Of a stretch of 43,188 nucleotides of DNA, positions 5,392-36,800 are shown in pieces. Source of the DNA: Rhizaria sp. SCN 62-66 (Eukaryota); NCBI GenBank assembly GCA_001724265.1, contig MEDY01000336.1, positions 1 to 43,188 of the forward strand, in the 5' to 3' direction. Each line of letters begins with the position of its first letter. Within the stretch, counting starts at the first letter, position 1. Made by a program: the position numbers and the translations under genes. A model generated the notes under the pieces. The model did no database searches and was not told the DNA's origin. It saw only the letters and a program-made list of their open reading frames with translations.

Positions 5392-5966
5392 TTCGGGGCG
5401 CTGCGCGAAAATGCGACGAGGGTGAGCAGTGGGTGTTGTGTGAAGTTATCCAAGTCAGTCGCTAGGAAGAAAACTATGATATTTTGTGGTATAATTTTAA
5501 AAAACCTAGGTTATATCAGATATAGTAACTGAATACCGGCGCACACGTGCAATAACGGTGTGTACACACGTGTACATTCGAAGTTCTAATTGCGACGGGC
5601 AGAGCCATCGTCTGGTTTTGACCGAAAAGTTAGAAAACAAGCGTTGCTTAAGCTGGACAAACAGCACTGGCTGCGCCAAATCCGAAGATTATCCACACAT
5701 TCACGCGGTTGACCCCTGAGTTCCGTTTATCCAGCAAATTAAAAGTGTACGAACTCCGCGAATCCTTTAACCTATTTCTTATCAGCGTCTGTTTACCCAG
5801 CTCTAAATTAATGTTTGACGAGCTGTATGAAGTACCCGCAGTACTTTGTTAACGAGATCCATATAAGTCACTTGTTAATTTAAGCATTAATAACATTATT
5901 TAAGCTTTAATAGCTACGATGTTTCAATATTTTATGTGTTGTTTCAATCTTCAGCATATCCTATCA

Positions 5967-10399: not shown

Positions 10400-10603
10400 G
10401 TTCCTCACCGCCTCTCGCTCGCCTCGCTTACCTCAGCGCCCCTCGAGTCCGTCGGCCTGCCCGCGCGCGCGCCCGCCCCTTCCCTTACCTCCGCGGCCTT
10501 CCCACACCCAATTCAGCTCTCCGCGCTCCCCTCGTTCTTTCTCGCTCTCCAGCTGCTCACTTGAAGCGCAGCCCCCCTCCCTCCCCACTTCTCCTCGCTC
10601 ACA

Positions 10604-12823
10604 ATGGCCGAGGTCTACCGCGCCTCTTCCTCTGCGCAGCACCAGCACCACATGCAACAGCAGCAGCCCTCACCGGGCCACTCGCCGGGCGGCCACGCGC
10701 ACGAGTCGCTGCTGTTCGAGATCTTCTGCGTCGTCTACCGCCTCCACGAGTCGTCATGGGTCGTGCTGGGCGGGGCGTCCTGGTCGCAGCTCCATGTCAT
10801 CAAGAACGACACCACGGGCGAGTGTCGCGTCGTCTCCTGGATCCCCGACGCGAACAGCAACGGCAACGGCAACGCGGCTGTGGACCCCTCCGCGATCCCG
10901 CTGGGCCCGCCTGCCGACACGCCCGCTGCGTCAATCCTCTTCCGCTTCCCGCTCACGGCGGCGTGCCACATCAAGCGCAAGTCCTCCGACTTCATCCGCC
11001 TCACGGACCCGGCCGGCACGACCTGGGGGCTCGGCTTCTACGTCAAGGGCGATGCTAGCACGGAGCCCGCGGACTTGCTGCGTGTCCTGACCGCCGCCGT
11101 CGAGGCTGCCACCGCGCGCGCCAAGGCCCGCAAGGACGCCGCGCCCGCCACGCCCGCTCGCCCCGTCCTTGCGCCGGGCAGTGTGAACCACAGCAACACG
11201 ATGCCGCTGCCCGGCGCTGCAGCAACGGCCAGTGCGAGTAGTCCGCAGCAGCAGCAGCCGCTGATGGCGTCGCCCGCCGCGCCCGAGCGGCCGCGGCGCA
11301 CGACGGTCAAGGCCCCCGCCGTGGCCTCTTCCTCGACCACCGTGCCCGTGTCGTCCTTCTTCACGCGCCGCGTCGAGCCCGGCGCCGAGGCCACGAGTCC
11401 CCCCGCGGGTTACCCCACGGGTACCACGGGTCACCCTAACGCCGCCGCGGGTACCAGCCCGGCGACGGCCGGCGGCAGGGTCTCGGACCTCGCCCTCACG
11501 GCCCCCTCGGCCACCGCCTCTGGCTCAGCCTCTGGCTCCGGCTTAGCCTCTGGCTCTAACACTGGCTCTAACACTGGCTCTGGCTCCAGCGCGCTGGCGT
11601 CGAGCGCGAGCGCGAGCGGGGCCAGCGGCGGCAGCGCGGAGCTGGTGCCGACGCCGCACCCGTTCGGCGCGCCCGTCAGTGAGGCCTACGCGGCGACGGT
11701 CGGCACGCTGGGGCTGCTGACGATCTTCCCCGAGAAGCCTGCCAAGCGCGCCACGGTGACGGCGACGCCCGCCAACGCGGCCGCGTCCCCGGCGGCGGCC
11801 GCGGCGGCCACGGCGCGCGCGCGCAAGAGCGGTGGCAAGCCTGGCAGCGCGCACGGTGCCGAGGACGACGACGACGACGACGAGGAGTATGCGATGCTCG
11901 CGGCGGCCGAGATCACCTCGCCCGTACGCGTGTCGCACGACGTGCACGCCAAGGTGGACCCGCAGACGGGCCGCATCCTGGGACTGCCCTCCGACTGGGA
12001 GGCCATGCTCCACAAGCAGTTCGCGGTGCCCCTCCCGCAGGTATGTTCAATGATAATATTTATCTTTGTTATGAGCTATTTGCAAAAAATTGTGATGTGT
12101 TTGTTCTCATATGATAGTTCGATAACACTTTTTTTCACAAATATCTCCACAACTCTCATACCTTTGCTTTCCTCGACATTATCCTTCTCTGCTCCCGCCA
12201 CCGCCGCCGCGCCCCAGGTGGACACGATCGCGCTGTCGCCGTACCCGGGCAAGGTGCCGCGCGTGCTGCACGTGCTCTTCGCGCTGTTGGAGCGCGCGGG
12301 CGGGCTCGACTCCGAGGGCGTGTTCCGCCTCGCGCCCGAAGGCGGCTCCACCGACGCCGTCAAGGCGCGCATCGACGCTGGCGAGCTCATCGGCGCGCGC
12401 GCGCGCACGGATCCGGTGACGGGGCTGCCCGAATTCGGCGAGCACGGCGCCGCCGTCGACACGCTTGCCACAGTCATTAAGGTCTGGTTCCGCGAGCTCC
12501 CCGTGAAGCTGCTCGAGAAGGTGCCGCAGCGCGTCATCATGGAGCTCACGACGCCCGACGAGGCGTGGCAAAAGGTCGTGCGCGCGCTGCCCGAGCCGTA
12601 CAAGTCGACGTGCGCGTACTTGGTGGACGAGTGCGTGCGCGTGACGGCCAACTCGAAGAAGAACAAGATGACCCCGCAGAACCTGGGCATCGTTATCGGG
12701 CCGAACCTGTTCCTGCCCGACGAGACCAACCCGATGAACACGCTGGCGTACTCGCAGAAGGTCGCGCAGTGGCTCAAGCTCGCCATCGAGTTCCGCGTCG
12801 CCAACCCGCAGGCGGAGATCTGA
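10604..12823 (+). CDS. RhoGAP with CRIB/PBD motif and N-terminal EVH1/WH1-like domain; exons 10604-12040 and 12218-12823; about 680 aa
   Basis: CRIB-like ITSPVRVSHDVH..D...GLPSDW. GAP motifs GGLDSEGVFRLA (Arg finger), IKVWFRELP and NKMTPQNLGIVIGPNLF. N-terminus VYR..SWV..GG..WSQL..CRVVSW..DFIRLTD..WGLGF resembles EVH1. Ends TGA. Confidence 0.88.
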   Translation: MAEVYRASSSAQHQHHMQQQQPSPGHSPGGHAHESLLFEIFCVVYRLHESSWVVLGGASWSQLHVIKNDTTGECRVVSWIPDANSNGNGNAAVDPSAIPLGPPADTPAASILFRFPLTAACHIKRKSSDFIRLTDPAGTTWGLGFYVKGDASTEPADLLRVLTAAVEAATARAKARKDAAPATPARPVLAPGSVNHSNTMPLPGAAATASASSPQQQQPLMASPAAPERPRRTTVKAPAVASSSTTVPVSSFFTRRVEPGAEATSPPAGYPTGTTGHPNAAAGTSPATAGGRVSDLALTAPSATASGSASGSGLASGSNTGSNTGSGSSALASSASASGASGGSAELVPTPHPFGAPVSEAYAATVGTLGLLTIFPEKPAKRATVTATPANAAASPAAAAAATARARKSGGKPGSAHGAEDDDDDDEEYAMLAAAEITSPVRVSHDVHAKVDPQTGRILGLPSDWEAMLHKQFAVPLPQVCSMIIFIFVMSYLQKIVMCLFSYDSSITLFFTNISTTLIPLLSSTLSFSAPATAAAPQVDTIALSPYPGKVPRVLHVLFALLERAGGLDSEGVFRLAPEGGSTDAVKARIDAGELIGARARTDPVTGLPEFGEHGAAVDTLATVIKVWFRELPVKLLEKVPQRVIMELTTPDEAWQKVVRALPEPYKSTCAYLVDECVRVTANSKKNKMTPQNLGIVIGPNLFLPDETNPMNTLAYSQKVAQWLKLAIEFRVANPQAEI
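11517..11586 (+). repeat. Coding 12-bp imperfect tandem repeats (ASGS/NTGS linker)
   Basis: gcctctggctcN and aacactggctct units. Confidence 0.7.
12041..12217 (+). other. Spliceosomal intron (177 nt, 3n, no in-frame stop)
   Basis: CAG|GTATGT...GCCCCAG|GTG; T-rich block inside a GC-rich ORF. Confidence 0.85.
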
Positions 12824-13973: not shown

Positions 13974-14750
13974 ATGCGTACCGTCGCTCTCCTGCTCGCC
14001 GTGGCCGCGGCCGTGTTCGCGCCCCTGGCCGCCGTGGCCGCGCCCGCCGCCGCCAACTTCACCTCGTTCTCCGCCTTCTTCAAGGGCGAGTGGGAGGTTC
14101 AGCTCAGCACCGCGCCCGCACTTGCTCCTTCCGCGGCCACGACCGTCTACGCGCCCCTGCTGAGCACGTACACGCTGCACAGCGACAATGTGACGCTGAA
14201 CCTCTTCGGCACATCCTTCGACAACAACACCGCGACGGCCGAGGTTACCAACGTGCAGGCGCTCGCCGTGGACTTTACCGACGCCGCGGGCAACGTTGGT
14301 GCGCTCTCTGCCGACGGCAAGAAGCTCTTCGACTTCAACTTCGTGGTGCACCCCAACGGCGTCGCCATCTCGCAGGGCCCCTGGCTGGCTGCGAAGGACG
14401 CCAAGGACGCCAAGGGGACCGCGATCTACACCTTCACGGCGCTGCCCAACGACAAGTTTGTGCTGGTGGTGATTCCCGCGGGCGGCGAGGGCAGCGCGCA
14501 CACCTTCTCGGGCTCGCGCCGCGTGCCCAAGGCTGACAAGACCTTCTTCCAGCAGTACGGCACCTTCGTCATGATCGGCGTCATGATGGTCGTCAACATG
14601 TTTGTCCAGAACAAGACCAAGCAGATGGGCATGCAGACCCCGCCCGCCGCTGGTGCCGCCCCCGCGGTTGCCGGCGCCCCCGCTGCCCCTGCTGTCGCCG
14701 CGCCCGCGCCCGCGGCCGGCAACAAGACCGCCTCCAAGAAGGCCGACTAA
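13974..14750 (+). CDS. Uncharacterised type I membrane protein (signal peptide, lumenal domain, C-terminal TM helix), 258 aa
   Basis: Signal peptide MRTVALLLAVAAAVFAPLAAVAA. KTFFQQYGTFVMIGVMMVVNMFV TM segment, loosely like EMC10-type tails. Strong C/G third-position bias. Ends TAA. Confidence 0.8.
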   Translation: MRTVALLLAVAAAVFAPLAAVAAPAAANFTSFSAFFKGEWEVQLSTAPALAPSAATTVYAPLLSTYTLHSDNVTLNLFGTSFDNNTATAEVTNVQALAVDFTDAAGNVGALSADGKKLFDFNFVVHPNGVAISQGPWLAAKDAKDAKGTAIYTFTALPNDKFVLVVIPAGGEGSAHTFSGSRRVPKADKTFFQQYGTFVMIGVMMVVNMFVQNKTKQMGMQTPPAAGAAPAVAGAPAAPAVAAPAPAAGNKTASKKAD

Positions 14751-15284
14751 GGTTTACCACTGCATATTAACTCAAGAATTGCGGCGGATAGTTGGCGATT
14801 TAAGTTATTTTAAGGCGACGCCAGGAATTGGCGGAATACAATAGCTAGTATTTATCAAAACTGGATCGATATGCTTTTATTGTACAGAGATATATCGTGA
14901 AACGCGAACTCCATGACTGGCTGGAGGGGCAGCGCGGGCCCACGGTCAGTCTCGGTCTGCAGTGTTCTTCTTCTTCGGTCCACCGGCATGGGCCGAGAGT
15001 CAAGACGAGGGAGGCCGAGGGGTGGACCGTGTTTTGATTGATACGCTGGTCCCGACGTTTGGCACTTTGTAGTCAAACGCCTTTTTTTTTGGTTTCACGT
15101 TAAGTCAATACTTTTCCGTTTCAAACACACGGCGATCAACGACTGCTTCGCCGCGCTTTGTTGTGCCTAAACAACGCGACTTTTTTAACGTGTTTTAAAG
15201 AGTCACCGCCCCCCTGCCTTTGACCCCAGCGGCGTCCCGCCCTGTTGCCCCCAGCCCGTCCCCGCGTCGCCCGCAGCTGCCATC

Positions 15285-16618
15285 ATGGACGAAGAGTCGC
15301 TCGCGCGCCTGCGCCACGAGGTTGAGACGCTGGAGATGCGCATTGAGCAATCGCGAGAGAAGAGGAAGCGTGAGGAAGGCCTCGACGTCCGTACGTTCAC
15401 TATCGCACACTTAACACGCATGTTATCACCAGAATCGGTTCTCTGTGCCGCTAAAACGATGTTGATTGCGCAATATTTCTCTATTTCTATCGATTTATCG
15501 TGTTAGTTTTCTCATACGTCTTTCCATTCCGTCGAAATGCTCACGCAACCTCCTCGTCGCCAACACTCGTCCTTCGGGTTTTTTGCCTTGCTTTGCTTCG
15601 CGGTATTCTGCCCTTTTCAACTTAACCATAACCCATAGTCGCCCGCGCTGCGCACGAGGCCGGCATCCAGCCCACTGATTGCAACCTGAAGACGATCCGC
15701 ACCCTGTCGGGCCACTTCGGCAAGGTCTACGCAATGGCGTGGAGCAAGAATTCGAAGCAAATTTGCACTGCCGCGCAAGACGGCAAGCTCATTGTGTGGA
15801 ACGCCTTCGCGGCCGTCAAGAACCTCGTCATCACGCTGCGCACGAACTGGGTCATGACATGCGGCTACAGCGCTTCGGGCACGCTCGTCGCCTCGGGCGG
15901 CCTCGACAACATCGTCACCATCCACAAGCTCCCCGAGGGGCTCAGCAACCTCGCTAACAGTAAGAACGGCTCCTCCACGCCCGGCTCCGCCATCATCTCG
16001 GCCGAGCTGGCGGGCCACCAGGGCTACGTCTCCTCGTGCTCGTTCGTGGACGCCGACCACGTGCTCACGGCATCGGGCGACGGCATGTGCGCGCTCTTCA
16101 ACATCACGACGCAGAACCTGCTGATGGAGTTCCGCGGCCACGACAGCGACGTCATGGACATCTCGCTCTCGCCCGACAACCCCAGCATCTTCCTCTCGTC
16201 CTCGGTCGACTCGACGGTGCGCCTCTGGGACACGCGCGTCGCCAACGCGCAGGGCGTGTTCCTGGGCCACGAGGCAGACGTCAACGCCGTCACCTTCTTC
16301 CCCAACGCCACCACCTTCGCCACCGGCTCCGACGACTGTTCGGCGCGGCTCTTCGACACGCGCGCCTACTCGCAGTTCGGCGTCTTCTCCGACTCAAAGC
16401 AGCTCGCCGGCATGACCTCCGTGGCCGTCTCGCGGTCAGCGCGGCTGCTCTTCACGGGCACTGACGCCAACTCGCTGTGCGCGTGGGACACGCAGACATG
16501 CCAGCCCGTGCAGGCCGTCGAGGCGCACGACAACCGCGTGTGCGGCGTCGCCACCAGCCCCGACGGCATGGTCCTCGCCACCTGCTCTTTCGACTACAGC
16601 ACCAAGATCTGGGCCTAA
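15285..16618 (+). CDS. GNB: Heterotrimeric G-protein beta subunit (N-terminal coiled coil plus WD40 propeller); exons 15285-15390 and 15639-16618; about 361 aa
   Basis: Spliced product gives the coil MDEESLARLRHEVETLE.. then KTIRTLSGHFGKVYAMAW, QDGKLIVWN, WVMTCGY, VASGGLDN, GHEADVNAV, FATGSDDCSARLFD, HDNRV and terminal KIWA. Ends TAA. Confidence 0.93.
15391..15638 (+). other. Spliceosomal intron (248 nt)
   Basis: GTACGT...CCCATAG, phase 1; restores the G-beta frame. Confidence 0.85.
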
Positions 16619-18808: not shown

Positions 18809-21800
18809 ATGTCCCGCTCTGGCACCCCCAAGCTTGCGCCTAACGCAGGTTTGGCGGGATTTGACGCTGCTACCTTGCGTAACCATGCTACAGCTGCGTC
18901 CTTGTCTTCGCAGACACCTAACGCGGACTCTGCCGCTTCATCCAACGGCGGTCTCCACTTCGGCCCACACTTGGCCCCCTCGCCCTCCGTTGTCTCGGCA
19001 GTGTCCCTGGGCTCAACTCTACATAGCCCGGCGTCAGCGCACTCAGCGGTTACCCCCACTGCGGCATCCGGCTCTGCGCGCGGTGGTAAGGATCCACGCG
19101 CTAATGCCGCCCCGGCCCGCGCCTCCGCAGCAACAGACAGCGCTGGCGCTGCTTCTAGCGCTGCAAACCACCTCTCGCTTCCCTCTGGCGCTGTATCCGC
19201 TGCCAACGTTCCCACCGGGCCCGGCATAGCCTCAGGTGGTATGTTGCCCCCGCTGCCGTCACGGCAAACCACAAGCTCAGCACACGAAAGCAAACCCAGC
19301 ACCAGCGCAAACAATGTCGGCATCAACAGCAGCAGCAGTAGCATCACCCGCAGCAGCACTGAGCCAACCCTCGCCGAAGAACCCGCGACGACGATTTCGC
19401 TCTCGTCCGCACTGCTGGACTGCGTGTCCCTCGCGCACACCGCGCTGACCGCGCCCGGCCCCGCGACCTCGCCCTCCGCGGGCAGCGCGGGACCCGGCGG
19501 CGCAGGCACTGGCCCCGCCGCAGCCTCCGCGCTGCTGTCACACGCGCTGTCTTCGCACGCCGCGCGCTCTGCCTCGGTCTCGGGCGTACCCACGGCGCAG
19601 GAGCAGCTGTGGGACCGCGCGGCGCGCTACTACGCGCACTCGCTGCTTGCCGTCGCGCTGTGTCACGGCGGCCGCTTCCCCGCCGCCGCCGAGGCCGCGA
19701 CCGCTGCCTTGGAGCTATCCCCCGGCGACGACTTCGCGCTCGTCACGCGCGCCTACGCGCTCGCGCAGCAGGGCCGCTACGACGAGGCGCGCGCGGACGC
19801 GCACGCGGCGCTGCGGCGCAACCCGCGCAACGACGCGGCCTGGGGCACGCGCGCATCGAGCTACATCGACGTCGGCGACTACGAACAGGCCATCAGCGAC
19901 GCGCGACGCAGTCTGCGCCTGAACCCCGCCAACGAGGCGTCGCGGCTGAATCTGTTGTCAGCGTACCTGCGCAAGGCGGGCACGCACCGCAAGCTGCACT
20001 TCCTGCGGCTCGCGCAAGCCAACGCCGCCGAGAGCGACAGCAAGGCTAAGGACGACGGCGACGGTGACAACGACGGTGACGGCGACAGCGACGACGATCA
20101 TAGCGGCGAGCTGCTGCGGCGCGCGCCGTCGCCCGAGCATGGCGGCATCGACGCCGCGCTGGCCGCCGCGGCCGAGGACGACCCCGCGCTCGCAGCCGCG
20201 GTCAAGGCCGCTGAGGGCTGGGACTGGGACGGCGACGCGGCTGCCGCGGTGCTCAGCCTCTGCGACGCGCGCAACCGCGGCAGTGCGGCCAGCAATGCTA
20301 TGCCGCAAGGCAAGAAGGCGGCTGGCAGGCCCGTGTCGGCCGCTGTGGGTGCGCGGAAAGACTTTGCTGCTGCTGCCGCGAAGGCCAAGAGCAAGGGCAA
20401 AGCGAATGTGAATGTGAAAGGTTGCACCGGCGATTCTAACAGCGCCAACGGTGATGACAATGGCAACGCCGATGGTGATAATGCGGGCGTGCCAGCGCGC
20501 GCAAAATTAAGCCGCGTGTCCCCGTGGCCCTTTAGCAATGCGTACACCGGCACACCTACGGCCCATGGCTCCTCTGCTGCGGAGACCGTGGCTGCTGCCG
20601 AGGCTGCTGAGCGCGACCGCGAGCGTGAGCGTGAGTGCGAGCGTCAGCTTGGCCTGCTCCCCGCCGAAGCGCGCGCGCTCCGCACTCGCGGCTTCGCGAC
20701 TGCGCTGGCGCTGCACAGCGTGCTGCGGCCGACGGACAGTCTGGAGGCCGCGGCGGAGGCGGCGCTCGCCGCGGTGGCGCCGGACGCGCTCGCGCTTCCC
20801 ACTGCCCTGAACAACAGTAAGAATGACATTGGCAGCACCAGCAAGTCGAGTGGTGCTGGTGGCGCTGCTGGAGGACTGCGCATCATGATCACCCCTGGTG
20901 ACAAGGACAGTAGCACTCCCCAAAACACCCACGGTGGCAACAAGGCGGACACTGCCGAGAGCAAACAACTATAGAATGACACGGCAAATGCTGATGCGAG
21001 GCTCGGTCTGGCTCTCGGCCCACGGCTTGCGCGCGCCTTGGCTGACCCCCTCTCTCACCCCACTGTCGCGAACGATATCTTTAACGGCCGCGGTCGCGCT
21101 GATGCTGGCGCTGGCTTGGGCATGAATAGTCTCGACAGCTCCGGCAGCATCGCCCCTGACAGCGCCCTGCTGGCCCGCGCATCGCCCGCCGCCCGCGTCG
21201 CCGCCGCCGTGGCCGCGGGCGCTTGCCAGCCTTCCGCGGCCGCGACAGGTCCTGCACTCGCCGCGGCAGCCGCGGCGACGCGCCGTGCGCTGGCGCTGCT
21301 GCGGCTTACGGGCCGCACGGGTGAGAGCAGTCTACTCGAGCTGTTGTACTCGGTCGGTGCGGTTGCCGCGGCCACGTACGGCGCCGCCAAGGCCGCCGCG
21401 GCGGAGGCTGCAGCGATCGCGGCCGCTGTCGCTGCGGCCGAGGCTGCTAGCATGGGCAATGCGGACGAGTTCGACGCCGACGGTGACGGCGACGGGAGTC
21501 GCGCTGGGTCGCGTCTGCGGCTGCAGAGCTCCCACACTAAGGAGACGGGGGATGGCGGCGACAGCAGCAGTCCGACTCGCAGCGCGTCGCAGCGCCGACT
21601 GCGGACGCCCATCACTGCGAACACTGGCGGCGACAGCAGCCGCAACGCTGGCACCGCGGACGGCAATAGTGCGACTGTGGCCGACACCGACAACGGGGAC
21701 GACGACAGCGCCGGCGGCAAAACGCCCCGGCTCTCATCCCGCCTGCGCAGCCGCGCGCTGTCGCGCCGCAGCGCCCGCGCGGCGCGCCGACTGAGCTCGC

Positions 21801-24800
21801 GTCTGGGGCTCAGCACGCCGCTTGCCACCGACAGCGCCAACGGCTTGCGCGCGGACGGCAACGAGCAGAGCGCGCGCGGGCGCAGGCTCGCACTCGTGTC
21901 TTCGCTCTTCGCCGAGTCCGCGACCGCCGCGGGGCGCGCGTACGCCGCCACCGTCGCAGCAGCGGCGCGCGCGCACGCCGCGGTGTACAAGGCGACCGCG
22001 CTCGCTATCACGAGCAGCGGGACCGCCAACGGCAACGCCAACGCCAGCAGCGGCAGGAGCAAAGCAAGTGCCGGCAGCAACGACGTGGTGGCCGTGAGCG
22101 TGGGCGACTGCGAGCGCGAGGGCTCCGTGGCCGAGGCGCTCGCGGCCGCGGCGGGCCAGGCTGTGGCCGCGGCGCGCGCGTGGCGGGCCGCCACTGCGGC
22201 TGCAGCGGCCGCGGCGAGGGAGCCCGCCGCGGGGGCCGAGCTGTGGGCGTGTTCTTCGAGCTCCAGCATGAGCGCAAACAGCATACATAACAGCGGTACC
22301 AGCGGTCACTCAACCCCGAGTTGCGGCACTGCTCCGGGCGGCATCGCTCCTAGTGACAGCCCCGGCAGCAGTGGTGACAGCGGCATGACCCTCTGGGCCC
22401 GCGTCAAGGCCCTTGCTTAGGGCCGTGTGGGCGTGCCGCTTCCCTCATCAAGCGCTGCTGCGAGACCCGCCAATTCAATCGCGAACAGTAGAGCGAGCGT
22501 CAACACCAGCACGAGCTCTAAGAACAACAGTGATGCGAGCGCGAGCTCTAGCTCTGCCGACGGGAACTTCGCTGGCAGTAGCGCCGGCGGCGAGACCGCT
22601 GGCTCGGTGCCGCCGTTGGCCCTGTTCGATCCTGCCGTGCCCGCTGCGCCCGCGTGGCTCGCTCCCTTCGACCCCTCCGCTGCGGCTGCCGCTACTGCGA
22701 CTGCCGGTAATGCCACTGTGGCGAATTCCATTGCGTTTGGCTCTAACGTTGATGACGCGACCAGCAATGCTAAGAGTGGCACTACCGGTGAGTTTGACGT
22801 ACTGCCAGATGTGTTTCAGGGCCTGGATGATCTCATTACACCCATCAACAGCACTTCAGTGAGCAGCACTAACAACAACAACAACGCGAATGGCTTAGGC
22901 AAGCAGAACGACAGACGCCTTGCTCGTGGCTCTGTGGCCGGCGCTACTTTCACCAATGCGTTTTCGCACAGTACAACTGACCTCCGCAGCGTGAGCCCGA
23001 CTGCAAATACCGGTGCGGGCGCAAGCGGTGTTGGCTACTGCGGCTACGTCTGGACTGCGGCCCGCGGTTTGCCGTTGCCTGTGGGCGCTGACTTGCCTGC
23101 TTTCTGGCGCAAACATGTGCCGCCCTATTCCTACGCCAATGTCAGCAGCACGAGCGCAAGCGCCGCTGCTAATGTTGCTGAAGCGGAGGCAAGCGCGGTT
23201 GACACAGCCCTCGCCGCCGCGCTGCCTCCCGTGGCCGCAGCCGCGCTTGCCACCGCGACCGCGACGGCCGCGCTGCGTCCCCGCGCGCTGCCGCAGCCCT
23301 TCGCTGCCACCATGAACGCCAACACCGCTGCGGCCGCGTCTGCGACCTCGGCGACAGCTGCGGCGGCGGCAGTGAGCGGCGCGTCGCTGGGCCCGCTGAC
23401 CGCAGCGATGGCGCTCGCGCAGGAGCAGGCGCAGGGCCACGGCACGAGCGACGGGCTGCCCGTGCCCGCGGCGCTGTTGTCGCAGCGGCAGCACGGGCTT
23501 CTGTCTGCGCACGCTGCGGCCAAGCGCGACCGTGAGCCGACTCTCTGGCTCGCGGTGTCTCCTAACAGTTGCAATATTGCAAGCGCGAATTACGGTGCAA
23601 TGGGCCCCGCTGCAGTTGCGAACGCTCTGCACTCAGCTGCATTCCCCGTCGCTCTCTCCGACTGCAACAACAATAGCGGTTCTGCGTCTTGCGGCAGGCA
23701 CAGCACTGCGCGCGTGCCGCTGCTGTCTGTGGCGCCGGCCCTGCTGCCCGCATCCGTGACTGCGCTGTCCGCGAGCGGCTCCGCGGGCCCGGGGCCCGTA
23801 TGGGTGCCGCTCACGGTCACCGCGCTCGCCGCGGTGCCCGCGTTCGATGGCGTCTCGGTCAGCTTCGCGGCCTCGTACGCGCCCATCGCAAGTGCGCTCC
23901 CGGCCGCGAACGCAGCAAACGCAAGCACTTCTGGCAAGAGCGCGACTGCGGTGGCATCGGCACTGGCGGCCGCTGTGGCGGGCGTTTTTGCGCCCGGCGC
24001 GAGCTACAACCCCCACAGCCACCCCGGCCTGCTCGCCGCCTCCGCCGCCGCTGCCACGGCCGCTGCCAACGCGCTGCGCGCGCAAAACAGGCGCGACCGC
24101 GACCGCGAGCAGAGCGGCAGCCCGAACCGCAGGGGCACTGTGGTGCTCGGCGCGAGCCGCGGCAACAGCTTCGGCGACGGCTCTGCTTCAGTCAATGCGA
24201 CGACGAACAACGTCAGCGTGAGCAATACTGGGAACAACAGCACGACCATTGCGACAGCGCTGCCCCGACTGCTCGCCGCCTCTGCGCCCCCGCCCTCTGC
24301 CTTTGCCGCCGCACCGGTCTCAGCTGCAGCAACTGCGAGTGCGGGCGCAAGCGCGGGCCCCGTGCTGCTCACAGTGCCTCACGCCGTCACCGTGACCTCC
24401 GTGCCGGACGCGCTCGCGCTGCTGCTCAGCGGCGCCGACCTCGCGCTGCACCTCTACGCCACCGCGCGCGACGCCGCCCTCCCGCGCGCGCGCGCTGCCG
24501 CTGCCGCCGCCGCTGCTGCCGCCGCCTCTGCTGCGGCGGCCAGCGCGGAGAGCGCATTGAGCACCGAGAGCGATGCAACTGCGGCCGCCGGCCTGATTGA
24601 CTCCGACGCCGTCATGCTCCCCGCCGCAGCGACGGCGACTGCTGCGACCGCGAGTGGAACGCCGTTGCAGCCCACGCGCCGCGCGTCTCGTCGTATGACT
24701 GCAGCGGCTAGCGCGGCTGCGGCGCGCGCGTCCCCCGCCGCCGTTGGCGCCGCCGCTGCGTACGCCGCGCTCGCAGCTGTCGCGTGCACGCGCGCGTCGC

Positions 24801-27800
24801 CCGCCGCACTGCTCGCGCTCGCCGCGCCGCCGCCGCTCGCGCGCGCGCTGGCGCTCCCGGCGCCACCGCTCGCGCCCACGCTGCCGACGACGCTGGCGGC
24901 CGGCGTGCCCGTGCCCGCTGTGGCCTCGCAGCGCGCGCGCGTGGCGGCCGCCGCGGGCGACGGCTGGCCCTTTGCCCACGCCAAGGCCCGGCTCGCGCGC
25001 GCAGTCGCGGCTGCGGGCGCGGTAGCCAGCGCCTCAGGTGCGGTGACAGTGGGGGGGGCGCTCTTGCCTGCGCGCGCCGCGGCGGCGATCGCTGCGGCTG
25101 CGTTGGGCCGGGCCGCCGCGCCCGCTCTCGCGCCGGCGCTCGTCGCCCTCGCTGCAGCCGGCGCGCTTAGCAACAGCAACAGCGGCAACGGTGGCCTCGA
25201 CGGGTTGCCGTCGCCGGCGCCGCTCTCGGGTTCGCTGTCACCGCGCACCATCGCCGCGAGCGGCCACGGTCACGGCCACGGCTACTACCAATACCAGTAC
25301 GGACCTGTGCAGGGCCAGTCCGGGCTGGTGACGCCGCGCCGCACGCCCGCGCCCTTGCTGCTGCTGTCGCCGCCGTCGGGCCACGCGACGCCGTTGCTCC
25401 ACGCCGAGAGCGCCGGCACGCCCGCGCCGTACGCGCACGCGCTCCCGCTCTCGCACCAGCTGCAATCGCAGACGCAGTCGCGCTTGTCGGGTGCGGCCTC
25501 CGCCCGCGACGGCGACGGCGACGTCGCGACGCCGCTGCTCTCCAGCATCAGCGCGGGCGGCCACGTCGCCGCGATCCCGAGCATCGGCGTGGGCAGCCGC
25601 GGCGCCCCTCGCGGGCGCGGTGCGCTCTATAAGCAGCAGCATCAGCAGCACCAGCACCAGCACCAGCGGGGGTCGCACTCGCTCATCGCGCTGCTTTCCG
25701 CACAGCCGCAGCTGCTGGCGCGCATGCAGTCGGTCCTCGCCGCGACTGCTGATGCCGCCGCGGCCGCCGCGCGCTCCCGCCGCGCCCTCGCTGCAATTGG
25801 CTCAAATGCAAATTCGGGGTTCTACACTGCGGCTGATAACGCAGCTGATGCTGCCGAAAGCGCTGCATCCATTGCGTCTCTGCCGCTGCCGCTGTTCCTG
25901 GCCCATACGGCCGCCGCGGCGGGCGCCGTGTCCGCCTCCGACGCGCTCGTGGGCGACTTTTTCGGAACCAACACGCTGCGCCGTCTGCGTCGGCACGCGC
26001 GTCCCCCTCGCCCGCAACGCACTACCCCAGCTCGCGCTGCTGTCCCTGCAAACCCGGACGCGAACGCATCAGTGGCCTCTGTCGATGCCGTGCCAGCGCC
26101 CGAGAACGAGATTGCAGCTGCGCCGAAGCGCGGCGTCGGCAGGCGAGCGACTCTGCGCGCGTCCATCCGCATTCCCCCGTCTACCTCCACGGCCTCGATC
26201 GGGGGCGACGGTGACAGCGTCGCGGACGGCGAGATGCGACCGGTGTACTCGGTGCGCGAGCAGCGCCACCTCAGCTACAGCCGCAGCCGCAGTAACAACA
26301 AAGGCGGCGAGCTCGCTGGCGAGGAAGACGAGGATGAGGACGAGTTCTACGACCAAGACGACGAGGACGACTACGAGGACGAGGATGAGGATGACGAAGA
26401 TGAGGACAAGGTGCTGCTGGAGGAAGAGGAGGACGAGTACGACGACGATGACGATGATGCGGGCTTCCGCGTCGTGCTGCCGCCGCCCTCACTCGCGCTG
26501 GTGCCCGAGGACCCTTTCTCGCCCTCCGCCGCAGCCGCCGCGGCCACCGCAGAAGACGCGGACACAGATGCTGACGCAGACGCTGAGGCGGCTGCGGCTG
26601 CTGCAGCGGCTGCGGCAGCAGCTGCAACCGCCGCCGCGGCCGCGGGCGCCGCCGAAGCCGAGGCCGCAGCGGCAGCAGCAGCAGCAGCGGCCGCGGCGGC
26701 TGCGGCTGCGGCGGCCAGCGCGCGGCTGCGGCGTCGTGGCTCCGCGCAGATGGCCGCCGGCACGCCCGGCCGCGGCCGCGGCCCTGCTACCGCGTCTGGC
26801 ACCGCTGCCGCTGCTGGCGCTACTCCGGTCGCAGCCGTGGCGAGCCGCTTTGCTGGCCCGCCCGCGGGTGCGCTCGACGCCGTCGCGACGCCGTACTACC
26901 TGTCGCCCACCTCACCTGACTCTAGTATGACCGGTATTGCGAGCACCGACGTTGCAGGTGCGGTCGCGTGCGCTTTGTTTGCGCCTATCGCGGCGCTGAC
27001 TGCCGCTGCGGATGCCGCAGCGGCGCGGCACCACCCAGCCGCCGCGGTCGCTCGCGCCGCCATCGCCGCCGCGACCACCGCCGCGGCCGCTGCAACGCCT
27101 GTCTCCCCCACTGCAGGCGGCGGCGCGAGTCCCTGCGTGCTGGCGGACGAGGCCACCGCGGCCGCGGTCGCGCCGCTGCTTGCCGCCGTCGCGACGCGCG
27201 TGCGCCCCGCGCTTCTGGCCGCCTTCCTCCCCTCGCTGCCCGCCGGCGCCGCCGCGGCGGCAGCCCCGGCCGCGGGCAACACGGGCGCCGGGTTGCTGCT
27301 CGCGGCCTCTGCGGCGGCCGTCGCGGCTGCCCCCGTTGCCGCGGCAGCCGTGGCGCCCTCCGTCGGCGCGCCGCTCACTCTGGCAGCTGTGTCTGACTTC
27401 GCGTCGTCACTGGCGACCGGCACCGGCAGCGGCGTTGCGCTCCTCTCCTCAGCGCTCTCCAACAACAGCATGGCATCTGCTGCGAATGCCGCTCCTGTTG
27501 CGTTCCCGCTGTTGGTCACCGCGCCCGTGCCCGCGTCGCTGCTGCCGCTGCACGTGGCGCTGCTGCGCGACGCCCCCGCGGCCGCGGCCGCGCTGTTGTG
27601 GGCCGCCGGGCACGCGTTCGAGGGCGAGCGCAGGGCCCGCGCGCGCGCCCGCGCCACGGCCGCTGCGCCCGCGCCCGTGCTGTTCCTGCTGCGGCGCCGG
27701 CTCGAGCAGACGGCGGCCCTGGTGCTGCTCGCCTCGGAGCACCCCGCGCCCAACGCGCGCAGCGGCGCGACGACTGCGGTCGCGGTGGCCGCGAGCGTGG

Positions 27801-30800
27801 CGACGCACGTGCGCGGCGGGAGGAAGGCCAGTCTCGCGGCTGCCGGCGCGCTGGCCGCCGCCGCCGCTGCCGCTACTGCCGCGGCGAACAGCGCGGGCTT
27901 CGGCGCCGCGCTGGCGCTGGACGCGGCCGCCGCAGTGCGCGCCGTGGCGGCCCGCGCCGCCGCCGCGCACCCCGACCTCGCGGTGCTGACGGAACAGTGC
28001 GCGGCCGCCGCGACGCACTTGAAGCAGGTCACGGTCGGCGGCGCGGGCAGGGCCGAGGGCGTGCGCGCGGGGCTGCGGCGCGCGGCCGACACGCTGGCGA
28101 TGCTCGAGCTCGCGCTGTGGGACACCGAGCGCGACGCGGAGAAACGCGTCGCCACGGCGCTCGCCACCGCGGTGCCGCTGCTGCCCGCCGGCGCCGCTGA
28201 CGGCAACGCCGGCGACAGCGCCGAGGACGAGGACGAGGAGGGCGCTGCCGAGGGCGTCGCCGCGCTGGCCGCGGCGCTGCCGGGCGCGATGGCGCGGCGG
28301 CACGCGCGCGAGACGCGCAACGGCCGCTACCACAACAACAGCAGTGCGGGCGGCGGCTACTGGCAGGGCGGCGATGTTGTCGACGGGGCTGGGCTGGACG
28401 TCGGCAGTGGCAGCGAGGCGACTTGCGACGACTTGAGCAACAACAGCGACGGTGACAGCGACGTCAACGCCAGTAGCAACGACGACGATGACAAGAACGA
28501 CGAAGAAGATTGTGGCAACAGTGACAGTGAAAGAGACAACAGCGGCGGCGAGGGCAAAGTCGGTGCGCGTGCCCGCTTTGCGCCGTCGCCGCACTTCCCC
28601 CCGCGCCCCCGTGGCCGCACCAACGGAAACTCTTTCAGCAGCGCCAGCAACAAGAATGGTAACACTGAGAAGAAGCACCGCCATGGTGCTCGCGCTCGTT
28701 CTCGCCTCGCCAATCAGCAGGAGAAGAAGCCCTCCCCGGCCGAGGCTGCGGCTGTGGACGCTGCGGAGGCCCTCGCGGCGCGGCTCTACCCGGTCGCTGC
28801 GGGCGCGCTCGCCCGCGTGTTTGCGTCGCGCCGCCTGCTCACGCAGCTCGTCGCCGTGCTGCGCGGTGCGCTGCTGCACAAGGCCCAGCTGCTCACGGCC
28901 ACGGCCGCGGCCGGCGACGCGGCGGGGAGCGAGGCGGCGGACGGTGGCGCGCTCGTGGTGCCGGCGCTGAGTCCGTTCGCGCTGCTAGGCCGCGAGGCGC
29001 GCGCGCTCAAGGTCGCCGTGCGCGCGCTCGCTGCCAACAGCAGTGGCGCTCTCTCCGGCTCCGACTCGGACTCCGAATCCGAATCTAACGATGAAGATGA
29101 CGGCGACCACGGCGACGGCGATGATGAAGATGGCGTTGAGCTCCGTGGCGCTGCTGCGCCGCTGCGTGCGCTGCGCTCGTGGGCTGCGCGCTGGCTGGGC
29201 TTGCCCGCGCGCCCCGTCGCGCTCCCCGCGCCCACACTCGGTCTCGGTGAAACCGCGAACAAGAGCGCCGACAACATCCATGACAGCAATATTGGTATTG
29301 ATGCAGATGCTGCGTTCTGGTGGCAGCGCCCGCGCCGCCGCGCCGCGCCCCCCGCGCAAGCACACGCGCTGTGGTGCATCGTCCACCTCGCCGACGCCGC
29401 CGCGGCTGGCAACGCGGCCGCCACGCTCGCGGCTATCACCGCTCTCCGCGACGCCCTGTGTCCGTCCCCCGCCGCCACAGCCGCCGCCGCCGCCGCCGCT
29501 GCCGCCAAGAGCGACGCGGACGCCACGGCAGTGCCGCCCAGCGCGGCGCTGTCGGCCATCGCGCCCGTGCTGACTGCGGTCACGGCCGTGTCGACGCTGT
29601 CGCGCCTGTGGCCCGCCGCCGAGCGCGCGCCGCCGCTGGCGTGGGTCGAGCGCGCCGCCGCAGTCGCCGCTGCCGTCGCGCCCGCCGCGGCCGCCGCTGC
29701 GCTGGGCACCGCGGCCGGTGCGCGCGCGCGCGTGCGCTGCTGGGGCCGCGACCTGCGCGCCGCCGTGGCGACGCTGGAAGTCGCTGAGGCTGCGTACGCT
29801 GCTGCACTCGTGCGCCGGCAAGAGAGGCTTGCGCTCGTCGCAGCGGTCGCCGCGGCTGACGCCGACGCTGCCGCCAATGCAGTTTCTGCTTCGGATGTCA
29901 GTGTGCGCCTGAGCGTAACTGTGCCCGTGGGCGACGGCGACGGTCACGGCCACACTGCGCGCGAGCGGTCGCTGACGCGCGCGCGGCCGATGCTGGTGAC
30001 CAAGGGGCGCAACGGCCCGACGACGAGCGAGTTCCCGCCGTCTCCGCGTCGCCAGCAGGCCGTTGGGGCAGCGCAGGGGTCCGCAGCGGCAGATGCGAGC
30101 AAGAGCAGGGCGACAGTGCTGTCCGCCGCCGCTGCCACTGCCGCTGCAGCTGCTGCACTGGCAGCAGGTGCTGCGCTGCGCATGCAGCGCCGTGTTCGCT
30201 GGCTCCGTGCGGTCTATAATAATAGCGCAAGCTCTAGTAGTAACAACGGCACGGCGGATGGCGTCGATTGGGAATGCGACGCCGACGCCGCGGCCGCAGG
30301 TGTGGACGGCGCTGGCGACGATGACGGCGACGGCGACGACGGCGACGACGACGCCGAGGTTGACGCCTTCTCCGAGACCGCCGTCTTCGCGCCCGCGCTG
30401 CCCGCTGGCGCCGCCGCTGCGGGACCGGGCTCAGAGTCCGATTCCGCCGCCGCGGCCGCGATGGGCGGCACTGCGTCCGGCGCGGGGCTCGCGTCGGCTT
30501 TCGACGCCGCAGCCAGCGCGGCCTCCGCTGCGGGCGCGGCGGCTGGCGCGCCGGCCTCGCGCGGACTGCGTTTGCGCCCCGCGGCCAACAACAGCACCGG
30601 TCCTGGCGCTAGTGTGGGTGCTGCTGCTGCTACTGCTGCTGCTCCCGCTGGGCCTGCAGCAGGACGCGGCACGCCCGCGCGCGCGCCTAGCGTGCACCGC
30701 CTGCTGGCCCCCGCCAGCGCCCTCGCCAGCACGCCCAGCGAAAGCGCGTACGCCGGTGCCAGTAGCAGCAGTGTCGTTGTTGCTGGCTCCAGCAGCGCAG

Positions 30801-33800
30801 CCACGGGTCCGTTGCGCGGCGTCGGTCTCTGGGCCGTGTCAGCGGCTGTCCGCTTCCGAGCCGGCGGGCGCCGCGGTGCTGCTGCTGCAGCCGCCGCAGC
30901 CGCCGCCTGTATCACTGGCGCGCTGATGCTGCCAACACCGACTGTGTCCCCCGCCCCGGGAGCCACGGGCGGCGCTGCTGCCTCTGCGCTGCGCGCTCCC
31001 GCACTTCTGCCTCTCCCAATGTCGCACCAGCCCTCGCTGGCTGCTAACCCGTTCACGACACTCTTCGAGCCCGCGCGCGCACCCGCTGCCGCAGCGCTGT
31101 CCGCGGCCGCAGCGCGCGCGCTGGCGCTGGAGCGCCGTCCCCCGCGCGCGCCCAAGGTCATCCGCAAAGCGCGCGACATCGGCCTGGCTCCGACCCCGCG
31201 TAACGCCTCGAGTGGCGGCAGCGGCAGCATGAGGCCGCGGTCGACGAACCGGCCGAGATCGAAGTCAGGCCGCCCGCGCTCGGGCATGCCCTCGCCCAGC
31301 CCGAGTCCCAGCCCCGCATTCGGGCTTGCCGCCCCCATCGGCAGCAGCCACAGCATCAGCGGCGACCGCGGCCACCTCCTCTCAATCGAGCGAGGACACA
31401 CGGGCCTCGCGCCATGGGCCGACGACGAGCCCGACGGGCTTTTGGACGGCATCGTCGGTCCCAGCGCCAGCAACGGCACCAACAGCGGTCGCGACAGCAA
31501 TATGAGCACGCCGTCGGCGTCGCCAATGCGTCCGCTACCGCTGCGCTCTCGCAGCATCCTGGTTGCGGCCGCAATGACCGGCTCCGCCGCGCCGTCCCCG
31601 CCGCCCGCTCCGTTGCCGCTGCCGCTCCCGTTGCCTTTGAACGGCGCGAGCGTGAGCAACAATGGCGCAATGCAGTCGCATCACACAGGTGGACATACTC
31701 AATCTCCGTCTCCGCGCCGCCGCCCGCCGGGTCGCCGCGCTGCGGCTGCAGTCGCTGCGATTGTGTCCAACCTCAGCTTGCTGTCTCCCTCCGCGCGCGC
31801 GCGGCGCCAGCGTCACCGCCGCCGCCAGACTGACGGCTTCGGCAGCGACCGTGCTGAGGAGGAAGCTGGTGATATCGCAGCTGCCGCCGCCAATGTCGCC
31901 GCTGCACGTGCTGCAGTGACCGCACTGCTCTACGGCACGAAGCCCGAAGACTCCAGCCGCGCTGTGGCAGTGAGTGATTACAGTGACGCGAACAAGAACG
32001 CCAGCGGTGAGAAGGACGATGACGACGATGATGGCTACGACGACGACGGCGCCGTCATCGCTTCAGTGCCGTGCGCCGCCGCCGCGCCCCCCGCGTCACT
32101 GCTGGCCGGCCTCGGTGATCTGGCCTGGGCGCTCGACGCCGCTGCCACGCCCTCCGCGTCTCTCGCCGGCCCTGCGGCGGCGGGCAGCAACGCTGCGGCG
32201 GCCGCGGCGACCGCGGGCTGCTCGCTGTGGGGCGGCGCGGACCTGGGCGAGGAGCTCTTGGTCGCGGTGCTGTCGGGCACGCTCTTCGCGCAGCCCGACG
32301 CCGCCGCTCACTACGGGCTCACGCCGCTGCTCGCCACACCCGCGCTCGCTGCCGCGGCCGCCGTCGCCGCCACAGCCGCCGCCTCAGGTACCGCAGCGCC
32401 CGCGGTGGCCATCAGCGACATCGCGGCGCTCACGGCTGCGCTCATCAATCCCCCGGCCGCCGCCGCAGGCGCCGCAGCCGCTGTTGCCGCCGCCACGGCC
32501 ACCACGCCCGCAGCCGTACTCGCGACCGCCGCGGCCGCGGGGGGCAGTGCTGCGGGCGGTGCGACGAGTGCGAGTGCTGCGGCGACGGCTGCGGCTGCAG
32601 ATGGAGCATTTGAGTGTCTCTCCGGCGCGCCCGCCTCTGTCCCCACGCTGTCTGCTGCGAGTGCGGCCGCCAGTGGCGCTGCGACTGTGGGCGCGGTGCA
32701 CGCGCGGCTTGACTTCCTGCACGCGTATCTTGTCGCCACAGGCGCGCTCCCTCCTCAGCCCGTCGTATCTGCGTCTGCTAGCAACAGCAGCAGTGGTGAC
32801 CGTGACCGTGAGCGCGAGCGAGAGTTCATGCAGCTGCTTGCGCTGTCCCCCGCAGTGTGGAACGCGGCACACGCGCCCGCTGCGGGGCCGCTGACCGTGC
32901 CCGCTTCGCTGGCGGTCGACGCGACGCCGCTGCCTCTGGTGGTGTTTGCCAACGGCTCGTATACTGCAGCCGCTGCGGCCGCTGTCGGTGCAAGTGTGAG
33001 CGCGAGTGCAAACGCTGGTGCCAGTATGGACGCTTCGCAGCAACAGCCGCAGACTGCCGCAATGCTGGGGACTCCGCAACAGCAGCCGCCGCAGACCCCT
33101 GCGTCGACTGCGACTGCGAATTATGCCACGCCTTTACGCGTCTCACTCCCTATTGCTGGTAATGCTGCTGCTGCTGCCTCAACCCCCGTCACGGCCACTG
33201 CGCAGCCACAGCAACAGCAAGCGAGTGGTGTGCCTGGCGCCCCGACCGCTGCCTCTGTCGCCCTTGCGCGCGCGCGCTTTGCGCTGCTGTCGACGCGTGA
33301 GCGCGTGGCGCTGCTCTCGCACACGCTCGCCCTGGCTGCCGCGGTCGCCGCCCGCGCGCGTGCCCGCGCCTCCGCGGCCGCGGTGGTGACCCGCGCAGTG
33401 CACCTGCTGCTGACGGTCTCGCCTGCCGCGCCGCTGGCGCCGGTGGACCTGCTCGGCGCCGACCCGGACGCGCTGCTCCTCCACATGCACGCCACCTGCT
33501 TCCCCCACAGCAGCCACAGCGATGGCAGCGTCGACGGCTTCGAGAGTGCAGGCGATGACGCGCAGCGTGACGACGCGCGTGACACTGTTTCCTCGGCGGC
33601 GCTCGCGGCACCGCGCGTGGCGCTCGCCACGCAACGCGGCGCGCTGCTGCGGTGCATCGCTCTGGCGCGCGCTGCGGTTGCCGCAGAGGCCGTGCGCGGC
33701 GTCGCCCGCGCCGGTGCAGACGCTGCCACTAATGCCGCTACTGCTGCTGCGGCCGCACACTTCACGACTGCTGCCGCAGAGCGCCTGCGCTTGTTCCCAG

Positions 33801-36800
33801 CCTCCGCGTCCGCTTTTGCACGCGATGCTTTAAGCGGCAGCAGCAGTGCTGACTCCTGCGTGTCAGTCGCGGGACGCGTGTTGAACGCTGCTGAGACGGC
33901 GTTGGTGCTGCCTGCGTTGATTCCTCTGCTCGCGAGCCTCTACTCGCGCCGCCTCGCGGCCGCGGGACTCACCACAGCGCTGCAGGCGCCCGCGGCCGTG
34001 CGCGCACACGAAGAGGCGGAGCGCGATGCCGCGGCCGCAGGCTTACTTGTCACAGCAACGCCTCGCAACGCCATTGTGTGTGTCGCGCCGGTGATGCTCT
34101 CTGCTAATGCCACCAGCGGAGCCCATGACAATTCTCACCGCCATGGTTACGGCCATAGCTACGGCAACTCGCGTGGCAATGGCAGTGGCAGCAACAGCGG
34201 CAGGTCGCTGTCCGCCGCTGGCGCGGCTTCAGGCGCTTCCGCTGTGTCGAGCAGCGCCGGCGCTAGCCCCGCCTCGAGCCGACCCACCAGCAGGCTGAGT
34301 CTCGAGGCGCCCCCGCGTGCGGGCCGATTGTCCCCGACAGGCGGTTACAGCAGTGGCAGCGACGACGACGATCATGACGGTGCCAGTACGCATGATAATG
34401 AGCACGACCTTGACTGCCCCGCGTTCTACGCAGGCAGTACAGACGCAGATTACTTCGCCAACGCTGCAGTCAATGCCCAGTGCGTCTGCGGCGGCGGTGC
34501 GCGCGGCCGCGGCGGTGCCCGTGGCAGCGCCGTCGTCGACGCTGCCGACGACCCCGACGCTCTTGTCCTGCGCTACCGCGCCGCCGCTGCAGCCGGCGCA
34601 CGCCGCCACGCGCTGCGCGTTGGCCGCGCCCGTGCGCATACCGTGCTGCTGGCCACGGCTGCGGAGCTCGGTGGTGGCGCGGCCACGCAGGCGGCAATTT
34701 GTTCAGGCGCCGCGGCGGCGCGAGACGCGCTCGGCGCCATCGGGATTCACGCTGCTCGCACCGCGAGTGCGCGCGCGCGTGCGGCCGAGCTGAGCGCGCT
34801 GATGAACGCTGTCGACGAGACAGGTAGTCTTGTCAAGCTTGCCGGCACTGCGGCCGCGCTTCCGATTGCGCGCTGGATCGCGTCAGTTGCAAGCGCAGTT
34901 GTGGCAGCCGCTGGTAGCGATCCTATGCTGATCACTGTTGCAGCACAAACTGAGGTACGCAAGCACGTATACGACTTCTACTTTCTTTTAATATTAAATC
35001 TTACATTGACTTTGTTTTTAGATGACTTGTGTCTAATCTCACCCTGCCTCTTTGTTGTGATTTTTCTCCACTTATAGCAATTGGCCGTGTCTGGCGCTCT
35101 CGGCGAGACGGCTGCATCTCTGCTGCTCTGGCGTCACCGCTACCGTCTGCTCATTCCCGCGCCCCGCGCCTCTGACTCTTCGTCCGCGGCGAATAACGTC
35201 GGTCCGGGCTTGGGCCCCAACGCCACGGCCGGCGTCGCTGCGACCGCTGCTGCATCGCAGACGCACTACTTGCCGTCACTCGCACTGGGCGGACTTGCGC
35301 GCGCTCTGTCCGCCGCCGCGGCCGCTGCGCCCACGCCCGCACCCGGCTGCGCGTGGCTCCTCTCCAACGCGCTTGGGACAGACGCAGAGAGCAACAACAG
35401 CGTTGCGAGTGCGCGGAGCAAGCCCCGTGCCGTGCTGTACATCTCTGCGGCAGCCGCGCTGCTGCCTCATCTCTCTGCGGTGGCCGCCGTCGTCGCCGCG
35501 TTTGAGGCGCACGTGGCGACGCTGCCGCACGATGTGTTGGCGCAGCTTGGCTGGGACGTGTTCTTGCCCACCGCCGCTGCTGTCACAGGCCCAAATGGCA
35601 CCAACAGTGCAAACGCGCCCGTGATGGCGATGGGCGGCGCAAGCGACGTTGCGGCGACCGTAGCTGGGACTGCAGCCACGCCGTGGCACGAGCGCCTGTT
35701 GGCCGCGCTCGCCGCCCCTGCGCCGGCCGACGTCGCCGCCGCCACGGCGGCTTCCGTGGCTGCAACGCCCGCCGCTGCGGCAAACGCGGCCGCTGCCGCA
35801 GCCGCCACTGCAGCCGCCGCGGCTGCAGCGAGCGCGACGAGTCCCGTGCTGCTGTGTCTGGCAGAGGCGCGCGTAGCACTCGGCTGGGCGCTGCACCGCA
35901 CCGTCGGCTCCACCGTGGCCGCCGCGGACGCCGCCGCCGCGCGCGGGGCCGTTGCCGCAGCAGATGCCGCCGAGTCCGCTGCGCGCCAGCCGCGGCTCCT
36001 GGGCGCGCGCGCGCAGACGCCCGTCGCCTCGGCGCGCGCCCGCAGGCGTGGCGCCATCGCGTTGCGCTTTACTGCCGCAATGACTACCGCGCTCAGCAGT
36101 ACCGCGACCCGTGGCGCCGGAACAAGCAACGTTTCCGGTCCTGCTATGGCGGCGGCGTTGCTGCGGGCCGCGTATGTCGCTGCGCGCGCGGTGCCGTCGC
36201 TCACGCCGCGGTGGTTCCAGGCGCCCGCAGCCTTCCTCGTCGCCGCCGCCACTGCGGCCGGCCATGGCAGGGGCGCGGACAAGGACAGAAGCAGGGCTGG
36301 CCGTGGCCGCAGAGGCGCGCCCACACTGGCGGCGGCTGCGGGCACGCACGCGCAGCAGCGGCACTGGGGCCCTGCGCCTGCAGCGACCGCGGGCACGAGC
36401 GCGAGCGCGAACGCCACCGCTGCTGCCTCCGCGGCGGCAGCGGCCAAGGGAGAGGCTCGGTGGACCGCGGAGGCCGCGCTTGTCAAGGCGATGAGCGCGA
36501 CTCTCGGCACGGACAACAACGCGCACAGCGCGACTAATCCCGGTGCGCGCGATGTCGGCGCCGGTCGCGCGTCGCAGCGGCTGGCGCACGTCGTGATCGG
36601 CATGCACACGCGTAACTTCCCGGCCTTCGTGGCGCACGCGCTTTCGACCGCAGCTGCGTCCGTTAACGCAAATATTGCGATCAATCGCAGCAACAGCGAC
36701 GGTAACGGTAACAGCCATGAGAAGCCTAACAGTGTCGTTACTAGATCAAAGGCAAATGCCAGTGCGCGTGCGCAGATGTGGGGCGGTGTGGTGCCGGTGC

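Follow-up and report, generated by a model that had tools for sequence, protein, structure and literature searches.

Does a stop codon that interrupts a long and otherwise intact reading frame end the protein, or is it translated? This question is raised by the 43,188-nucleotide (nt) contig MEDY01000336.1 of Rhizaria sp. SCN 62-66, the whole of which is referred to here as the window. A giant alanine-rich orphan gene in the window carries two isolated in-frame TAG codons. The original prediction, made from the letters alone, was that UAG is read as an amino acid in this organism or is passed by programmed readthrough. We found that both TAGs were genuine in DNA and that they were neither gene ends nor parts of canonical introns. 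The reading favored here is that UAG is translated at these two sites, as a leaky or rare codon, and we give it a probability of roughly 0.4. This value and the likelihoods given in words for all other readings reflect judgement and were not computed, and the window alone cannot separate UAG translation from two recent nonsense mutations. The features concerned are as follows.

18809 to 39175, plus strand: giant alanine-rich orphan gene, with its first ATG at 18809 and a TGA at 39173-39175 (open frame and stop list).
19607 to 19969, plus strand: TPR repeat region, approximately residues 267-387 of the first segment (Pfam TPR_2, 1.5e-16; TPR_1, 2.1e-14; and related families).
20972 to 20974, plus strand: first in-frame TAG (CTA TAG AAT), codon 722 (stop list; DNA contigs of runs X3 and X4).
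20975 to 22417, plus strand: segment between the two TAGs, 481 codons, with no Pfam family and a positive coding score throughout.
22418 to 22420, plus strand: second in-frame TAG (GCT TAG GGC), codon 1204 (stop list; DNA contigs of runs X3 and X4).
34955 to 35077, plus strand: canonical AT-rich intron of 123 nt (GTACGC...TTATAG; local GC 0.28-0.38).
39173 to 39175, plus strand: stop codon (TGA) that ends the giant gene; the sequence behind it is AT-rich (36% GC over 200 nt).

Once its single intron was removed, the giant gene comprised 6747 codons, the two TAGs counted in. Its frame on the plus strand opened at 18743 and ended with the TGA at 39173-39175, and the remaining two plus-strand frames contained 86 and 181 stops over the same stretch. 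Three internal stops were present in approximately 6800 codons (at 20972, 22418, and 35075), all of them TAG, and the third (35075-35077) consisted of the last three bases of the 123-nt intron, that is, its acceptor. Over 20 kb, the frame stayed open with no frameshift and no internal TAA or TGA. The TPR repeats, which lie upstream of the first TAG, were the sole domain recognized by Pfam in this gene; beyond the TPR region, the sequence was alanine-rich and matched no Pfam family.

Both TAGs were present exactly as quoted in the original prediction and in the same frame, in the contexts AAA CAA CTA TAG AAT GAC (20972) and CTT GCT TAG GGC CGT (22418), and both were embedded in uninterrupted GC-rich coding sequence. 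Codon usage was compared among four segments of the gene (upstream of the first TAG, between the TAGs, from the second TAG to the intron, and downstream of the intron) and was found to correlate at r = 0.90-0.97, compared with 0.37-0.49 for shifted frames. Codon log-odds were also computed in 60-codon windows between 20252 and 23222, with the distal portion of the giant gene as the training set: 34 of 34 windows scored above zero in frame 0 and below zero in both remaining frames, with no dip at the TAGs. These results bear out the claim that the frame continues on both sides with unchanged codon style. The junctions had also been described as free of an AT-rich gap and of an ATG restart, which agrees with our data: the GC content of the 200 nt downstream was 65% after both TAGs versus 32-49% after all nine probable gene ends in the window, and the next in-frame ATG was located 49 codons past the first TAG and 297 codons past the second. 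These 297 codons were open and had a positive coding score.

The sequence of the window was found in metagenome runs from a bioreactor, wastewater, and activated sludge. Contigs were compared over 20 kb at 90% likeness, a setting at which many GC-rich contigs from other organisms were also captured. Contigs of the DNA run X3, possibly the source of the window, covered 19895-21184 and 21227-23226 with no differences, both TAGs included, and the same was true of contigs of run X4, from a separate study, at 20826-21253 and 22258-22670. X4 was treated as DNA-like because it retained the intron at 34955-35077. A further run, X6, reached the first TAG with 12 letters on one side and was not counted as bridging it. 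P0121, an open reading frame (ORF) from a gene caller that ends at the first TAG, was recorded on seven contigs. Contigs of this organism as long as 95 kb are present in runs X1-X3. On this evidence, the TAGs are real in DNA.

Both TAGs were unchanged in populations X3 and X4, though other sites in the gene differed. Eight single-base differences between runs were noted in the giant gene (19723-36614), two synonymous and six amino-acid-changing; three of the eight were common to X4 and the poly(A) RNA library X5, pointing to a second population. One contig of X4 and one of X3 carried a variant with a 3-nt in-frame deletion at 26390, within an acidic GAT/GAG repeat of the gene; no other indel difference among four runs was listed over the 20 kb. 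The protein is weakly constrained, as six of the eight single-base differences change an amino acid, and nonsense mutations or slightly harmful codons would tend to persist in such a gene. X5 yielded contigs at 21065-21404 and 21490-21864, between the two TAGs, as well as over the remainder of the gene.

The introns of the window were compared with the sequence around the TAGs. All seven had a GTAYG donor, as the original prediction had stated, and were AT-rich, with a local GC content of approximately 0.28-0.42; length was measured for two of them (123 nt and about 169 nt), and the acceptor was YAG. The 1500 nt preceding the first TAG contained no GTAYG donor, and for the second TAG the closest upstream donors were located at 21940 and 21376 (478 and 1042 nt away), consistent with the claim that none lies within about 400 nt upstream of either TAG. 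Neither TAG showed a local GC dip of the intron kind. We counted the GT/GC..AG pairs with a length divisible by three (3n) that span the TAGs and obtained 314 for the first and 554 for the second. The top-ranked candidates listed had a GC content of 65-73%, were mostly longer than 350 nt, and resembled none of the seven real introns. Thus, the GTAYG donor and AT-rich body that characterize spliceosomal introns here were lacking around both TAGs, and the sequence excludes a canonical intron across them. The RhoGAP intron (GTATGT donor, 12041 to approximately 12200, plus strand) contained no stop in the exon frame, and the ORF at 10565-12823 reads through it; therefore, an open frame alone is no marker of an exon in this genome.

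Nine probable terminators were identified in the window. TGA terminated five genes (the SFM1-like, fatty acid (FA) hydroxylase, RhoGAP, giant, and Arf genes), TAA terminated four (Tim17, G-beta, the gene at 13974, and the gene ending at 5967), and TAG terminated none. In other eukaryotes, 15-33% of terminators are TAG. Under the standard code, the absence of TAG among nine terminators has p = 0.23-0.03 for a TAG share of 15-33%, with the sample being small. This result fits the notion that UAG does not act as a normal terminator in this organism.

Taken as one continuous coding sequence, the gene would require ribosomes to pass both TAGs. In this organism, UAG may terminate translation poorly, and decoding at the two sites could be performed by a near-cognate tRNA or by a scarce suppressor tRNA. 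It would not be a routine sense codon, being apparently avoided both as a terminator and within frames, and it may survive only in a long, weakly constrained, and weakly codon-biased giant gene. Whereas the TAGs in DNA and the coding signal around them were observed directly, continued translation, its agent, and the insertion of an amino acid are what we infer. On a more tentative level, this uncultured, GC-rich eukaryote from wastewater reactors could have a transitional genetic code, in which UAG no longer serves as a terminator and, although sense use is still avoided, is translated where present.

A number of observations weigh against translation of UAG. TAG occurred twice in the giant gene, whereas 34.9 occurrences were expected from position-specific base frequencies (ratio 0.07); in the same test, TAA was observed 0 times versus 7.0 expected and TGA 0 times versus 8.9 expected. 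The most depleted sense codons of the gene, GGG (0.24) and ATA (0.25), were well above TAG. As the depletion of TAG equals that of TAA and TGA, TAG is selected against in frame in the same manner as the recognized stops. No TAG was found in the exons of the other window genes (among them the Pfam-supported G-beta, Tim17, RhoGAP, SFM1-like, FA hydroxylase, and Arf genes), and the window contained no tRNA and yielded 0 matches to Rfam. None of the X5 RNA contigs among the pieces listed spanned either TAG or the control intron. To our knowledge, TAG-A and TAG-G are not among the leaky contexts. The 100 nt downstream of each TAG folded no better than 200 shuffles (z = +0.43 and +0.25), so that, of the readthrough features tested, same-frame coding continuation was found, and a leaky context and a stimulatory downstream structure were not. 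The suggestion that the UAG-G of the second site permits readthrough of the gammaretroviral kind finds no support in these folds. Moreover, two successive readthroughs would leave the full-length product scarce unless decoding were efficient, and the proportion of amino-acid-changing differences between runs (six of eight) indicates that the protein is under weak constraint. The claim that UAG is decoded as an amino acid is partly supported, insofar as none of the nine probable genes ends in TAG and the coding signal continues past both sites, whereas its use as an ordinary sense codon is not supported by two occurrences against 34.9. Similarly, the breaks are all TAG and never TAA or TGA, as the original prediction had emphasized, but this carries little weight: 62% of the one-step substitutions that make a stop in the giant gene make TAG, so that two TAGs in two breaks have p of approximately 0.39, which is weak evidence.

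Under the standard code, the locus could encode a 721-residue TPR protein, with two recent nonsense mutations leaving the 18-kb tail either as a pseudogene of recent origin or as an extension that is dispensable. We consider this explanation possible but doubtful. It would be consistent with in-frame TAG being as depleted as the other stops, with TAG being the most frequent outcome of one-step routes to a stop, and with the position of the only recognized domain before the first TAG. It would also suit an orphan gene in which GC at third codon positions (0.76-0.80) is below that of conserved neighbors (0.91-0.96) and most differences between runs are nonsynonymous. The sampled populations are only a few bases apart in 20 kb, and so the TAGs that they share say little about age. 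On the other hand, the 18 kb downstream contained no frameshift, TAA, or TGA, which would be unexpected after drift long enough for a second stop to arise, in view of the usual indel-to-substitution ratios. In addition, no terminator in the window was TAG, and no intact allele was found in the two runs bridging the sites (X3 and X4). A decaying pseudogene is disfavored by the intact frame and the absence of mixed stop types in 20 kb, although a very young pseudogene would be compatible with both. Translation of UAG is favored over nonsense mutations because of the lack of TAG terminators (in nine genes only) and of frameshifts.

The TAGs might instead be repaired in RNA, either by removal with an unconventional intron lacking GTAYG or by base editing (e.g., UAG to UGG by adenosine-to-inosine (A-to-I) editing), which we regard as unlikely. 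The many 3n pairs across the TAGs and the lack of a bridging X5 contig among the pieces listed leave room for it, and minimum-energy folds centered on the TAGs placed them inside hairpin loops or at the margins of such loops, with z of only -1.27 and -1.47. However, the 3n candidates differed from the seven real introns in GC content, the coding score remained positive across every candidate, and no A>G difference was listed at the TAGs in X5, whose coverage there is unknown. An arrangement in which the TAGs are true terminators and split the frame into two or three tandem reading frames, each translated on its own, is slightly less plausible still. The prokaryote-style gene caller did end P0121 at the first TAG, and an in-frame ATG follows 49 codons later, but the GC-rich sequence downstream contrasts with the AT-rich spacers at the nine real gene ends, the ATG-less codons past the second TAG are open and coding, and one frame and one codon usage are common to all segments. 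Finally, an established sense reassignment with a dedicated and abundant tRNA, as in exLh (Leu) or Iotanema (Gln), would explain why TAG alone interrupts the frame and ends none of the nine genes. This is very improbable, as TAG is so scarce in the giant gene and absent from the others, whereas 384 in-frame UAG codons were reported for exLh in 71 transcripts (PMC5304391).

The amino acid inserted at the TAGs had been described as not determinable on the ground that both sites lie in unconserved sequence, and our searches lead to the same conclusion. When the 882-residue read-through stretch containing both TAGs was compared with 1.84 billion representatives, the only match was its own ORF, P0121. 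Searches with segment 1 returned only P0121 and those with segment 4 only its own ORF, P0122; in these, 8000 candidates with the most words in common and 0.55-1.75 times the query length were scored. A scan of a metagenome collection with the TPR part detected only an identical 2196-nt fragment (L001) ending upstream of the TAGs, and nothing was found when loci of relatives were sought in genome-contig and viral-contig collections. Internal repeats alignable to the TAG sites were not found in the giant gene. A likeness between 20810-20828 and 20963-20980, which places TAG opposite AAG, was rejected as a chance match, the two copies being one base out of phase. Because no homologue or internal repeat aligns with the TAG sites, the decoded amino acid cannot be deduced.

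Changes of the nuclear code that affect UAG alone are rare, and the known cases were caught afterwards, when UAG was already a common codon. If the favored reading is correct, an organism that uses UAG neither to terminate nor as a common codon would show how reassignment begins, and a transitional code, if real, would provide an extant case of the intermediate that has been proposed for stop-codon reassignment. Gene callers would then cut the proteins of this organism short, as exemplified by the database ORF P0121. If the TAGs are nonsense mutations instead, the locus would be unremarkable, a giant orphan gene that has recently become a pseudogene.

The window is eukaryotic, as it contains introns along with G-beta, Tim17, Arf, and RhoGAP genes; no published description of this organism was found in the literature searched. 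The G-beta gene (15263-16618, plus strand) consists of two exons with a GTACGT intron at 15391 and is unusually divergent: one relative (P0002, from a metagenome) was 81% identical, and all other matches, named or not, were at most 47% identical. A protein atlas searched with G-beta returned only generic WD40 clusters. The FA hydroxylase ORF (4648-5445, minus strand) is followed by an intron of approximately 169 nt, from GTACGG at 4662 to TTGTAG at 4494, through which it is spliced onto the alanine-rich ORFs 3030-4493 and 2525-3301, with ...WDQ/LFKT... restored across the junction (marked by the slash). The result is one long gene (5445-2525, minus strand), the C-terminal part of which matched no Pfam family. 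The Arf-family GTPase gene (40986-39945, minus strand) has two exons, a GTACGC donor at 40480, and a TGA end; an in-frame TAG at 40324 lies within its intron. The ORF at 13974-14750 (plus strand) encodes 258 residues that begin much like a signal peptide and include a hydrophobic stretch close to the end; it terminates with TAA and matched no Pfam family.

Several known systems can be compared with this locus. In filamentous fungi, premature UAG stops are corrected by A-to-I editing of mRNA. The giant gene shares with them a genomic in-frame UAG in an otherwise intact gene, and no edited RNA was present in the pieces listed. Programmed UAG readthrough is represented by the gammaretroviral gag-pol junction, where UAG-G is accompanied by a pseudoknot, and by tobamoviruses, where the context is UAG-CAR-YYA. 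As in these systems, the frame here stays open over a long distance past an in-frame UAG, with no change of phase, and the second site is UAG-G. In contrast, neither a CAR-YYA context nor a downstream fold beyond shuffles was found, and the gene is cellular, with two sites 1.4 kb apart preceding an 18-kb extension. UAG reassignments are also described for phyllopharyngean ciliates (PMC11687900), and the present locus would resemble them in that UAG alone is the codon of changed meaning. The window is GC-rich, its measured introns are 123 nt and approximately 169 nt long, and it carries a G-beta gene, so that a link to ciliates finds no support. Further parallels are the UAG-only nuclear reassignments in the rhizarian exLh (UAG = Leu) and in Iotanema spirale (UAG = Gln) (PMC5304391, where UAG is reported as the most abundant Leu codon in the proteasome genes of exLh). 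Unlike in exLh, TAG occurs here only twice in approximately 10,000 codons, a depletion equal to that of true stops. Like exLh and Iotanema, however, this organism has a reading frame that only UAG interrupts and a set of nine probable genes that all end in other stop codons.

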